From NCBI GenBank assembly GCA_963732855.1, contig CAVTBB010000005.1, forward strand, positions 279,663 through 343,662: a stretch of 64,000 bases of DNA, in the 5' to 3' direction. This document shows, one piece after another, positions 1-5,165 of this stretch (its first letter is position 1; each line of letters opens with the position of its first letter). Under the pieces are notes generated by a model. That model was not told the DNA's origin. It made no database searches and saw only the letters and a program-made list of their open reading frames with translations. Position numbers and translations under genes: made by a program. Source of the DNA: an uncultured Methanomassiliicoccales archaeon (GTDB lineage: Archaea; Thermoplasmatota; Thermoplasmata; Methanomassiliicoccales; UBA472).

Positions 1-323
1 GAATAGGCCAATCCCTGGGTCAGGGCGCTCCTCGGAACGAGCAGGGTATGGGTTAGTATTCCCGTCCGACCCTTCTCGTCCAGCTTGCTACGCCGGAATA
101 TCTTCGAGAAGTAGACCGCGTCCAACGAAGGCACCGCCGCTATAAGCCTGGCCTCGTTGCTGAAGATGTCGTCCGCCTTGACGTAGTTCGGGTCCAGCGG
201 TATGTAGTAGCCGAGCATCCTCTCATACTCCTCGGGGTTGATGTTCGCCGAGCGGGCCCGTTTGGAGTATCCCTTCTTCGGCACTGGCCCATAGATAAAG
301 TGCTCGACCTTTGTCGTGTTCAT
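1..323 (-). CDS. Partial ORF (3' end beyond window), GAP1-N-like (GTPase-associated protein) N-terminal domain
   Basis: Manual translation from ATG at 323 is open to the window edge: MNTTKVEHFIYGPVPKKGYSKRARSAN...SKLDEKGRTGILTHTLLVPRSALTQGLAY. The ATG overlaps the GTPase stop (TAATG). The D-x-x-GR-x-G-x-x-x-H-x-LL segment resembles GAP1-N domains. Confidence 0.7.
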   Translation of the reverse strand, partial: MNTTKVEHFIYGPVPKKGYSKRARSANINPEEYERMLGYYIPLDPNYVKADDIFSNEARLIAAVPSLDAVYFSKIFRRSKLDEKGRTGILTHTLLVPRSALTQGLAY

Positions 324-1363
324 TATTTCCCCTCGAACTCCTGCTCGTCCTTTACCTCGTCGGGCATCTTCTTAGACAGCTCGCGGAACCTGTCAATGAA
401 GCCACGGTACTCCTCGGACGAGTAGTCCAGCATGTGCATGCCCTTGACCGAGATGAGCTTCGGGATGTTATCGCCATCTTCGTTCTGCTCGGTGCGTATC
501 TCGCTGAAGAAGTAAGAGGCATGGTCGAAAGAGACGTTGGCGATCGCCCCTCCCTTGGAGAGCGCCATCGTATCGCCGTAATACTTGCACAGGATGGCCC
601 GGGCGTAATCCTCCTTGGTCATGTCCTTGTCGCCGATGAGCTTGCCGATGAACCCGCGCTTCTCCCGGTCCATGCTCTTATACGTCGTCGGCCATCCGTT
701 CTGCTTTATTATCTCCTTGTCCAGCAGGTCGAACTTGGTAAGGAAGAACACCGGGTATATCTTGGCAGCGTCCTCGTTGGTCTTGAACACCTGTGATTTG
801 TACTTGGCGACGGCGCTGATCAGGGTGGCCATGAACACGTCGTAGTTCAGCATCTCCTTGAAACGTTCCGAACGGGCCTCGGCGTTGATCTTGCTCAGGT
901 CGATGAGGAAGACCAGCACGTTGCATCGGAGCAGCTCTCGGAAGGAGTCGCTCAACGAGTCGAAATTAAACTCGCCCTTGTAAGTACCAGACGTTATAGA
1001 TTCCCGGTACTGCTCTAAAGAACGCAGGATGTCTAAATCCTCGCCAGCAATGTCGTACACAGTGAAGTCCATGATGTCATACTTAGCCGATGACTTCGAT
1101 CCGACGGAGATATACTTCTTATAACCATACTTGAAGGTGTACTTGGCAAGGTTGCCTTTGAGGGTCGAGTCCGCCCATTGCCCGGTCTTCAGGTCGGTCC
1201 TGATATCACCCAGTATCTTCTCGAAGGAGGGATCGGTTATGAAACGGAACTCCCCTGGGCCGACGTTCTCCACGTCGTTCGTATATTGCACCTGTGATTC
1301 GTATAAGAGGCTGAGAAAGATCGTCTTGCCGCAAGACCTGTCCCCAAAGATAGCTACGGGCAT
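323..1363 (-). CDS. TRAFAC-class GTPase (DO-GTPase-like)
   Basis: G1 GDRSCGKT, G2-like WADST, G3 DIAG, G4 TKFD; 346 aa, stand-alone. Confidence 0.85.
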   Translation of the reverse strand: MPVAIFGDRSCGKTIFLSLLYESQVQYTNDVENVGPGEFRFITDPSFEKILGDIRTDLKTGQWADSTLKGNLAKYTFKYGYKKYISVGSKSSAKYDIMDFTVYDIAGEDLDILRSLEQYRESITSGTYKGEFNFDSLSDSFRELLRCNVLVFLIDLSKINAEARSERFKEMLNYDVFMATLISAVAKYKSQVFKTNEDAAKIYPVFFLTKFDLLDKEIIKQNGWPTTYKSMDREKRGFIGKLIGDKDMTKEDYARAILCKYYGDTMALSKGGAIANVSFDHASYFFSEIRTEQNEDGDNIPKLISVKGMHMLDYSSEEYRGFIDRFRELSKKMPDEVKDEQEFEGK

Positions 1364-1386: not shown

Positions 1387-1400
1387 TTAAATATCTTTTC
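1387..1400 (-). promoter_or_regulatory. BRE-TATA promoter of the GTPase operon (probably leaderless)
   Basis: Minus strand reads GAAAAG-A-TATTTAA, ending 23 nt before the ATG at 1363. Confidence 0.6.
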
Positions 1401-2117: not shown

Positions 2118-2145
2118 GAAGAGGCTGGAGAGTAATTCGTAGCAA

Positions 2146-2162
2146 AAGCTCGAAAAGAGCTT
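2146..2162 (+). terminator. Short hairpin downstream of the DZR gene
   Basis: AAGCTC-GAAAA-GAGCTT, about 30 nt after the stop. Confidence 0.35.
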
Positions 2163-2626
2163 CACCCCCTCGACAAATCTCAAAACTATCCCAAATTAAT
2201 CATTTTTGGTATATTGCCAGATTGATAGTTACCGAATATCTGGCGATGTTATCTGAAGACAATAATTTCCTTACGGCTTAAGTCGAGTCCCAGACCTTGG
2301 AACTGAAGCGGGAGGTGGAGGATGTGCATGTGTTCTAGGAGACATCATGCGCTTTCGCCAACACCGATGGTGGAAGTATCCTGTGATCCATATCAGAATC
2401 ACTTTTAACCGGCCCGAGAGCCGCAAATCATCCTTTGCCACCAAGGGTCCATTTGTATCTGATAGATAAGCCAAAATATGGATTTGAAATTCATACAGGC
2501 TTTGTTCCAGGAATTACCAATGAGGTAATCTTGGAATAGCTAGCAATGTTGTATTCCGGATTATGATCGCTGTCAATTGCCTTGCACAGATCTGCCCTCG
2601 ACCAAATAGGAATGAAAATCAAGCTT

Positions 2627-2947
2627 CTACAGTTTGCCCTTCACGTTTTGACTTCCACCCTTCTTCTTAGTCTCCGAAGAACCTTTTATCCAGGCCTTGT
2701 TCTCGTTCGCCCCGGCCCTCTTCCCGCTAACCGCTTCCTCCGAATGCGCCACGGCCTCCGCACTTGATCGCATCACACCTACTCCGGCATACTCTGTTCC
2801 TTTGCCAATTTCGATCGGCCCCTTTTTCTTGTCCATATTAGTAACGCCTTTCTCGCCCTTTGCCGCCCTCTTCGCTTCAGCTTCGGCGTTATCCGCCCTT
2901 GGACCTGTCTTGTCCCTTATATTATTTGCATGTTTCATAATATTCAA
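2627..2947 (-). CDS. Hypothetical low-complexity K/A/E/G-rich protein
   Basis: 106-aa hydrophilic ORF, no recognisable motif; start may be a few codons downstream. Confidence 0.45.
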   Translation of the reverse strand: MNIMKHANNIRDKTGPRADNAEAEAKRAAKGEKGVTNMDKKKGPIEIGKGTEYAGVGVMRSSAEAVAHSEEAVSGKRAGANENKAWIKGSSETKKKGGSQNVKGKL

Positions 2948-3193
2948 CCTATATTAACAACCATACCAGCTCAAATAAAAAACTTATCGTATGAAAGCTG
3001 GTATTTAACCAGCAAACCGGATGCTACCGAATCAATCCAATACAGAGGGATATCTGACCATTATGACCTGGACTAGCAATGAACCGCTCCAGTAGCCCTT
3101 TACCATTCAGAGTTGGATCATATGGTCAGACTAATCTCATATACTCGAACGTCTCAAGTAGTCCAATATGCAATCGACAAGGAAGTCACTGAA

Positions 3194-4703: not shown

Positions 4704-5165
4704 TCAAGATTTTTCTTGCATGGCTCGACTTTTTACCACTAGGACCGGGCATCCTGCGAATCTGACCACTTTCTCGGCCACGCTTCCCAGGAGGAACTTG
4801 GATACGCCAGAACGACCCAACGAACCCATCACGATCAGGTCGAACTTCCATGAATCCTGTATGATCTTGCTTGCCGGAGATCCCCATTCTAGCTTCGTCT
4901 CGACCTTGACGCCCATCTTCTCCCCTTCGGACCGGACGAACTCCACTGCCTTCTTCCCCTCATTCTCGAGGGCTTGGGTCAGATCGGGAATAGCGGTCGG
5001 CAGCATCGACCCCCAAGTCTTGGACATGTAAACGTCATCATCGATCACGAATAGTGCCATGACCTCTGCCCCGGCCATCTTGGCCAAGGCCAAGCTGTGC
5101 ATGGTTGCCGCCTCTGTAAATTCGCTTCCATCGGTTGGAACAAGAATGCGTTGATAGAGTCCCAT
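4704..5165 (-). CDS. Universal stress protein (UspA family)
   Basis: YQRILVPTDGS and DLIVMGSLGRSGVSKFLLGSVAEKVVRFAGCPVLVV. Confidence 0.95.
   Translation of the reverse strand: MGLYQRILVPTDGSEFTEAATMHSLALAKMAGAEVMALFVIDDDVYMSKTWGSMLPTAIPDLTQALENEGKKAVEFVRSEGEKMGVKVETKLEWGSPASKIIQDSWKFDLIVMGSLGRSGVSKFLLGSVAEKVVRFAGCPVLVVKSRAMQEKS

Follow-up and report, generated by a model that had tools for sequence, protein, structure and literature searches.

At the left end of a 64,000-nucleotide stretch of the genome of an uncultured Methanomassiliicoccales archaeon lies a GTPase gene, overlapped at its stop codon by a short partner gene. We propose that this pair is a reduced archaeal version of the DO-GTPase/GAP1 switch systems of bacteria, made of a GTPase and a short GAP1-like partner carried by an accessory island, and we put the probability of this reading at about 70%. 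The stretch, named the window hereafter, is G000:C5:279663-343662, in a genome of 2.54 Mb distributed over 6 contigs. The partner gene runs 474 nt (its last 158 codons) past the left edge of the window, into 17 kb of sequence that were fetched on that side (L002). DO-GTPase/GAP1 systems were defined in 2020 purely by comparative genomics (Kaur, Burroughs, Iyer & Aravind, eLife, PMC7159879), in a work that already noted them in 'a few archaea'; our literature search found no experimental follow-up. The present archaeal version is the smallest form seen here and consists of one apparently active GTPase, a partner of 265 amino acids (aa) and one third protein. With so few components it lends itself well to biochemical and structural studies of a minimal system.

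By its sequence, the 346-aa protein is a TRAFAC GTPase with its motifs intact, and it belongs to the DO-GTPase lineage. The original prediction had described a stand-alone GTPase with four G motifs, and this is what is found: G1 reads GDRSCGKT (window 1322-1345), the switch-I threonine is T67, G3 is DIAGED (window 1037-1054) and G4 is TKFD (window 728-739), all of them invariant, or nearly so, in 15 homologues (37-80% identity). Homologues bear the names Methanomassiliicoccales archaeon or Thermoplasmata archaeon. A glutamate at Walker B (DxxGE) is a hallmark of the DO-GTPase family (Kaur et al., PMC7159879). The corresponding residues, D104-I-A-G107-E108, are invariant in the family studied here, and D[IM]AGE is also present in archaeal DO-GTPase2 proteins certified by Pfam. 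PF19993 (DO-GTPase2) is the top Pfam family in 15 of the 15 homologues, with a best E of 1.6e-6, every one of them staying under the cutoff. One relative, P0023, has PF19993 as a precomputed domain. Aligned by hhalign with a DO-GTPase2 of 442 aa from a metagenomic locus (L008), itself scoring 33.9 bits for PF19993 (threshold 27), the profile of our GTPase reaches a probability of 95.9% (E 6e-9) over 245 columns, which cover the whole G domain. On the strength of the constant first rank of PF19993, of this profile match and of the DxxGE glutamate, we file the protein as a putative divergent branch of the DO-GTPases and not as a Pfam-level member: what had been predicted holds for the lineage and fails at the Pfam threshold. 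A hidden Markov model search of the profile against PDB sequences gave no GTPase at E<1, only chance matches such as pannexin, and there were zero matches in NCBIfam for the GTPase and its partner.

The GTPase gene has a promoter of its own, as had been foreseen, with a transcription factor B recognition element (BRE)-like GAAAAG followed by the TATA box ATATTTAA. When nine orthologous upstream regions were aligned, the promoter core GA.AA..TATTTA and the ATG alone proved invariant, while the flanking DNA has diverged. The invariance of this core amid diverged flanks makes it a phylogenetically footprinted, real archaeal BRE/TATA promoter. The messenger RNA of the GTPase is probably leaderless. 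At the other end of the gene, the stop codon TAA shares its final A with the ATG of the partner (TAATG; GGGAAATAATGAAC, window 321-325; also written AAATAATGAAC), an arrangement that the original prediction had noticed, together with the motif DEKGRTGILTHTLLVP in the coupled open reading frame (ORF). Both are present, and the coupling is not peculiar to this genome: the two genes are adjacent, with a 1- or 4-nt overlap (TAATG or ATGA), in every locus examined.

Which family does this partner belong to? Searched with a profile of the partner, 1.84 billion representative proteins yielded just 76 relatives, so that the family is small. Across 53 diverse members, D82, R86 and H92, all three within the DEKGRTGILTHTLLVP region, are nearly invariant. 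The link to GAP1 comes from a profile-profile comparison. The N-terminus of the GAP1 protein of L008, used as a query, had yielded just 3 proteins, hence the choice of a phylum-wide genome search, from which five archaeal GAP1 proteins were aligned (A6), including a protein of 561 aa whose GAP1-N2 score, 25 bits, passes the threshold of 24 (L023). Compared by hhalign with this target alignment of only five sequences, the 53-sequence profile of the partner family (A4) gave a probability of 95.7% (E 9e-9); the match pairs the two N-terminal ends and spans 186 columns (9-208 against 22-225), with the motifs GY..A.S and DE.GR.G..H in register. We take the partner to be homologous, by this comparison of sequences, to GAP1-N2 proteins over their N-terminal ~200 residues, and DEKGRTGILTHTLLVP (DEKGR..H) to be the apparent conserved core of a true, remote relationship. 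The proposal that the coupled ORF is of the GAP1-N kind is thus upheld as distant homology to GAP1-N2; it does not extend to a Pfam match, nor to the GAP1-M and GAP1-C regions.

A predicted structure gives this relationship a shape. The AlphaFold2 model of the partner (predicted local distance difference test score, pLDDT, 84.7; predicted template modelling score, pTM, 0.86) shows an N-terminal five-stranded alpha+beta domain that appears longin-like, followed by a C-terminal alpha/beta domain. When the model was compared with the PDB by Foldseek, the top match was Acinetobacter TagF (9t0n; E 7e-5, probability 1.00, 245 columns), an accessory repressor of type VI secretion systems (T6SS); next came FLCN-FNIP2, Pseudomonas aeruginosa TagF, subunits of SEAC/GATOR1 and a Lokiarchaeal Roadblock-Longin protein. 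Nothing meaningful was found among viral structures. We thus predict, with high confidence, that the partner consists of a longin-like domain and an alpha/beta domain, and that its closest structural likeness is to TagF, along with the longin modules found in FLCN/FNIP and GATOR1/SEAC. A longin platform with a second domain is the architecture that many GTPase regulators use, and the model predicts it here. It places D82, R86 and H92 in a loop between two strands of the longin domain, and our hypothesis is that R86 of this DEKGR loop could serve as an arginine finger, a role known for FLCN, Nprl2 and SMCR8.

The predicted longin-type N-terminal half is what the partner would share with FLCN-FNIP, with Nprl2/3 of GATOR1, with C9orf72-SMCR8, with the DENN proteins and with Asgard Roadblock-Longin proteins, and like these regulators it is encoded with, and presumably binds, a GTPase. 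Unlike them, it has a client that is not of the Ras, Arf or Rag type; the resemblance is structural only, with low TM values (0.2-0.3), and there is no evidence of common descent. TagF (PDB 9t0n, 6iz8, 2qnu) likewise combines an N-terminal alpha+beta domain, longin-like as modelled here, with a C-terminal alpha/beta domain. By contrast, it has no detectable sequence similarity to the partner (TM-score only 0.40-0.46) and no known GTPase partner, and the archaeal host has no known T6SS; no T6SS genes lie in the neighbourhood of the module.

Longin and Roadblock folds are related (PMC3521125), and a prokaryotic GTPase encoded with a longin- or Roadblock-like regulator also brings MglA/MglB to mind. 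One could therefore see in our gene an ordinary housekeeping or polarity GTPase, either of the Era/EngA kind involved in ribosome assembly or forming an MglA/MglB pair, with a downstream ORF that would be functionally unrelated. The weak matches to MMR_HSR1 (E 0.007) in 7 of the 15 homologues go in the same direction. We find this very improbable. The GTPase occurs in only 14 genomes among the 261 of the order, and DO-GTPase2 comes out as the best-matching model in every case. The partner, strictly inherited together with the GTPase, overlaps its stop codon in all loci; with two domains and 265 aa, it is twice the size of MglB (~130 aa). Nor is the GTPase of the Ras kind: Pfam gave no matches to Ras, Arf, Gtr1 or Roadblock, so that kinship with MglA, Rab or Arf, which would have told against the original prediction, is not seen. 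Nor is the coupled ORF devoid of GAP1 similarity or unconserved, since it is related to GAP1-N2 and keeps its place in all loci.

Beyond the pair, a module of five genes emerges from eight genomes of the same taxonomic family and from metagenomic loci. In the orientation of the window its synteny is GTPase2 (-), zinc-ribbon gene (+), GTPase1 (-), partner (-), third protein (+); in distant families of the phylum, GTPase1, GTPase2 and the partner stand in tandem. Two paralogous GTPase genes are found in 38% of DO-GTPase systems (PMC7159879). Most of our relatives have such a second gene, and their GTPase2 is degenerate: the lysine of Walker A has become arginine or threonine, G3 is lost and so is the switch-I threonine. 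It is missing altogether from this genome and from the congener G218, which have lost it. Sister genera carry it on the opposite side, beyond the zinc-ribbon gene. Positions 2118 to 3112 of the window, ~1 kb, contain no convincing ORF, although this is the spot that the degenerate GTPase2 occupies in sister genera; a tblastn search for a decayed copy within these limits revealed no remnant.

The original prediction had the window begin at the 5' end of a larger system that would continue to the left, with GAP1-M and GAP1-C domains, a second GTPase and effectors. Reading the left flank led us to reject it: the flank supplies only the remainder of the partner gene and a convergent gene of 439 aa, and no second GTPase, GAP1-M/C domain or effector is recognisable there in this genome.

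The convergent gene encodes the third protein. Its model (pLDDT 78.9) displays a helical N-terminal region, an Ig-like beta-sandwich and a C-terminal alpha/beta domain; in a fold search only a generic Ig-like sandwich (PapD/ASH/MSP) and a coiled coil were matched, and the C-terminal domain found no convincing structural counterpart. Compared by hhalign with full-length GAP1, including its M and C regions, the protein has a probability of 0.1% and is unrelated. It evolves much faster than the pair: its identities are 39-42%, where the GTPase has 75-78% and the partner 70-73%. Its C-terminal domain is fused to a GTPase paralogue of 539 aa (P0019), which argues for a contact between this domain and the GTPase; it also ends a 1217-aa protein in L007, and makes up the 310-aa protein encoded by the last gene of the operon in L008. 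As for the zinc-ribbon gene, it keeps its position beside the GTPase gene in most loci of the family. An N-terminal zinc ribbon, or several, is fused to the GTPase in 60% of DO-GTPases (PMC7159879). No such ribbon is fused to ours, which begins at the P-loop strand, and the divergently encoded protein probably stands in for the ribbons fused to most bacterial DO-GTPases.

Set against the DO-GTPase/GAP1-N2 ternary systems (PF19993, PF19975, PF20013), the archaeal module has in common with them a TRAFAC GTPase with a glutamate after Walker B, a gene of the GAP1 type directly downstream of it, profile-profile homology for both proteins, paired GTPase paralogues in relatives, an association with zinc ribbons, what may be a third component of the Ig/FN3 type, occasional kinase and PP2C neighbours and a patchy distribution. 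It differs from them in that the partner, at 265 aa, lacks the N + M + C architecture, that the zinc ribbon is a separate divergent gene, that this genome has a single GTPase, that the third component is new (helical, Ig-like and C-terminal domains) and unrelated to GAP1-M/C or GASH, that no effector belongs to the module, that both proteins fall under Pfam thresholds and that GTPase2 is degenerate in relatives.

The module is accessory, patchy across the phylum and, here, borne by an island. As anticipated in the original prediction, its distribution among related genomes is scattered: the 14 genomes of the order matched by the GTPase profile all belong to one family and to 4 of 40 genera, with 2 of the 8 genomes of the window's own genus. 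The partner profile, run against a sample of 401 genomes from across the phylum, matched 12 of them, which fall in five families. Canonical GAP1-N2 was found in 2 of these 401 genomes. In two congeners without the module, G219 and G216, the flanks are conserved (218- and 572-aa genes on the left; on the right the Usp gene, window 4704-5165, and what follows it), with only 3.4-5.7 kb of unrelated DNA between them. This syntenic site, which lacks the island genes, delineates an accessory island of ~19 kb, from the leucine-rich repeat (LRR)-FN3-kinase gene to the zinc-ribbon-transmembrane (TM) gene. Composition gives no foreign-DNA signal for the core genes (GC 0.56, against about 0.53-0.56 nearby). 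The features are gathered in Table 1.

Table 1. Coordinates of the GTPase-partner pair, its promoter and the neighbouring genes (window positions, unless marked L002 or G000:C5)
Feature	Size	Position	Strand	Remarks
GTPase gene	346 aa	323..1363	-	Putative divergent DO-GTPase2-like TRAFAC GTPase; G1, switch-I T67, G3, G4
Promoter of the GTPase gene		1387..1400	-	BRE-like GAAAAG 1395-1400 and TATA box ATATTTAA 1387-1394; 23 nt upstream of the GTPase ATG
Partner gene ('mini-GAP1')	265 codons, first 107 in the window	1..323; whole gene L002 16526-17323	-	
Partner motif DEKGRTGILTHTLLVP	residues 82-97	33-80	-	Aligned with the GR.GA motif of GAP1-N2 proteins
Zinc-ribbon gene	202 aa	1509..2117	+	Divergent from the GTPase gene; C-terminal double zinc ribbon
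Third gene	439 aa	L002 15210-16529	+	Convergent with the partner gene; helical, Ig-like and C-terminal domains
Membrane protein	135 aa	3113..3520	+	On the island; common to G218; no Pfam match
TM protein	259 aa	3691..4470	-	C-terminal zinc ribbon; last gene of the island
LRR-FN3-TM-kinase	1890 aa	L002 2966-8638; kinase domain G000:C5:265676-266416		8 BspA-type LRR repeats, 4 FN3, TM
TM Ser/Thr kinase	510 aa	L002 12160-13692; kinase domain G000:C5:274879-275619		
Zinc-ribbon-FHA protein	366 aa	left flank		On the island
CarboxypepD_reg TM protein		left flank		Beyond the PP2C gene
PP2C	139 + 120 aa	L002 10205-10988		Split in two ORFs; ~6 kb left of the window
SPFH (Band_7) + zinc-ribbon ORF		L002 13860-15193		Single 443-aa gene in G218

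Several observations weigh against reading the pair as a reduced DO-GTPase/GAP1 system. The best Pfam match of the GTPase, PF19993, reaches 17.4 bits for a gathering threshold of 27. For the partner no Pfam model was matched; PF20013 (GAP1-N2) came up in 1 of 14 of its homologues, at E 0.26, in none of the 53 family members, and nowhere at E<0.01 in a six-frame search of the genome. Since the partner stops at ~265 residues, where archaeal GAP1 proteins have 558-646 aa, GAP1-M and GAP1-C are missing. The second GTPase is absent from the whole genome at E<0.01, and the conserved module comes without an enzymatic effector, none being recognisable on this island either. The TM-score of the TagF match is modest (0.46/0.40) and was obtained from a predicted model. 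Neither the GTPase nor the partner had a match in PADLOC; tblastn gave none for the GTPase in phages and none for the partner in plasmids. The island itself raises further difficulties: its kinase, FHA, PP2C and SPFH neighbours are common only to G218, of the same genus; the PP2C gene is split by one extra G in a G5 run, compared with its intact 259-aa orthologue in G218; and the SPFH-zinc-ribbon gene is split by two +1 indels, one of them in an A7 run. These frameshifts may be assembly errors or may reflect decay into pseudogenes.

What, then, would the system be for? The nature of the island offers one answer. Its two Hanks-type kinase domains are the only two of the genome (Pkinase, E<1e-5), both within 15 kb of the GTPase gene, and they are accompanied by the PP2C and FHA genes; the SPFH-zinc-ribbon and third genes form a same-strand cluster, with gaps of 17-48 nt. 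One may thus imagine, in place of defence, an archaeal checkpoint based on serine/threonine phosphorylation and analogous to TagF-Fha-PpkA-PppA of the T6SS, in which the GTPase and a TagF-like partner would control some process at the membrane or envelope, acting jointly with the island's receptor kinases (LRR-FN3-TM-kinase and TM-kinase), its PP2C, its zinc-ribbon-FHA protein and its SPFH scaffold. TagF is the best structural match of the partner, and it is described as acting through the FHA protein Fha (PMC5995506); genes of the same types as those of its FHA, kinase and PP2C partners are on this island. Within the genus, strong kinase matches are restricted to the two genomes that bear the module and to one that is 55% complete. 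In a distant family (L031), an Ig-TM-kinase gene, with a gene for a peptidoglycan (PG)-binding/PapD-like/CAP protein, lies directly upstream of the GTPase pair, and at L023, where the 561-aa GAP1 protein follows a DO-GTPase gene, kinase and AAA+ genes stand beside this canonical archaeal GAP1 system. This co-variation and these contexts make a functional link to serine/threonine phosphorylation plausible. Kinase and PP2C genes are present in ~10% of GAP1-N2 neighbourhoods (PMC7159879). Yet in six other genera or loci of the family the module stands with no kinase, FHA, PP2C or SPFH gene beside it, which places the kinases outside the conserved core; SPFH adjoins the third gene in this genus only, both frameshifts affect members of the supposed checkpoint, sequence similarity to TagF is nil and no T6SS-like machine is known in this lineage. 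We consider such a checkpoint unlikely as the explanation of the pair, while keeping it in mind.

Another answer is a strict conflict with viruses or mobile elements. The third protein would sense the invader, the GTPase and its partner would set a threshold, and arrest or death would follow via unlinked effectors or assembly of the GTPase. Homology to DO-GTPase/GAP1 systems, which were proposed as conflict systems (PMC7159879), is in keeping with this, as are the patchy, island-borne distribution and the fast evolution of the third component. The relatives of the partner speak the same language: its domain is fused to TIR (P0058), to HerA/DUF87 ATPases (P0049, P0084, P0105) and to AAA+ ATPases (P0088, P0099, P0112); at L026 and L027 a GTPase gene of the family sits directly upstream of the fusion gene, the L027 relative being beside primase-polymerase, Cas4 and SNase genes; and at L030 the neighbour is a protein with an FGE-sulfatase domain. 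However, neither the conserved module nor, recognisably, the island contains an effector, PADLOC is silent, restriction-modification, CRISPR or other defence genes were not seen nearby, and no DO-GTPase system is known from experiment to confer defence of any kind. In this strict form we regard the conflict hypothesis as possible, albeit doubtful. More broadly, the reduced DO-GTPase/GAP1 system may serve in conflict or defence, or else in envelope or phospho-signalling.

Under our preferred reading, that of a reduced DO-GTPase/GAP1 switch, the GTPase would be a nucleotide-dependent switch, and the partner would form a stoichiometric complex with it, in the way that longin platforms do with their GTPases, and act as a GTPase-activating protein (GAP) or as a guanine nucleotide exchange factor (GEF), with R86 of the DEKGR loop as the candidate arginine finger. 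The faster-evolving third protein may be a sensor or an adaptor, and the zinc-ribbon protein would replace the fused ribbons of bacterial DO-GTPases. Output might proceed via other proteins of the island (kinase, FHA, PP2C, SPFH) or, in relatives, via domains to which the partner is fused or linked (TIR, HerA, AAA+, FGE-sulfatase). The predicted longin/TagF-like fold offers a concrete mechanism, in which the partner would be a platform for GAP or GEF activity and R86 its candidate finger, and it would link three subjects that otherwise stand apart, namely bacterial GAP1 systems, TagF of the T6SS and the longin-type GTPase regulators of eukaryotes; the island, home of the only Hanks kinases of the genome along with PP2C, FHA and SPFH genes, suggests where the output may be sought. 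A bolder view can be put forward as a speculation that is more likely wrong than right by a wide measure: the GAP1-N2 lineage, including its minimal 265-aa archaeal form and possibly TagF, would be a prokaryotic regulator of the longin-plus-DENN-like type, whose target would be a TRAFAC GTPase that is not of the Ras type; it would serve this GTPase either as a GAP, with R86 as the arginine finger, or as a GEF and would be, in this genus, wired to receptor serine/threonine kinases, FHA, PP2C and an SPFH scaffold. If true, this would be an archaeal counterpart, outside the Asgard group, both of the longin-GTPase logic of eukaryotes and of the bacterial TagF-Fha threonine-phosphorylation checkpoint.

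The neighbourhoods of relatives extend this picture. GAP1-N2 systems have fibronectin type III (FNIII) proteins, FGS effectors and a kinase/PP2C theme as variable components (Kaur et al., PMC7159879), and the FN3, FGE-sulfatase and kinase neighbours met among our loci recall them. A protein with 11 FN3 repeats lies within the module at L010, and no FN3-repeat protein was seen next to the module at loci L014-L020. Here, an FNIII component could correspond to the single Ig-like sandwich of the third protein, which is seen in the model only, or be sought in the LRR-kinase with its four FN3 domains, 8 kb away on the island.

Some of these loci deserve a description of their own. On a metagenomic, Thermoplasmata-like contig (L008 4035-12404), a canonical operon converges on a copy of the small GTPase-partner pair, so that both sizes of system coexist side by side. 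The operon encodes a Big_6 protein, a DO-GTPase1 (329 aa, 29.7 bits), a GAP1-like protein of 646 aa (weak N2, 16.8 bits), the 442-aa DO-GTPase2 and the 310-aa protein. On a low-GC archaeal contig (L027 6937-16101), a 355-aa GTPase gene overlaps that of an 856-aa partner-AAA+ fusion, which adjoins SNase, Cas4, NrS-1-like primase-polymerase and ArdC-like genes in a setting that looks like a mobile element. At L025 (884-2239), a TIR-partner protein of 451 aa, with the TIR domain at its N-terminus, is followed by a membrane protein with TrkA_N and RyR domains, on a short contig where no GTPase gene is visible. L007 (166-8741) has three GTPase paralogues of the family in a row (539, 315 and 340 aa), and the C-terminal 224 aa of its 1217-aa protein share 76% identity with the C-terminal extension that the 539-aa GTPase carries. 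Finally, in the PtaU1.Bin124 genome (L003 2321-9903), an operon whose products are a transglutaminase/Big_1 giant, a MoxR (AAA_3) ATPase, a DUF58 protein and a polytopic membrane protein sits directly upstream of the GTPase gene, on the strand of the latter.

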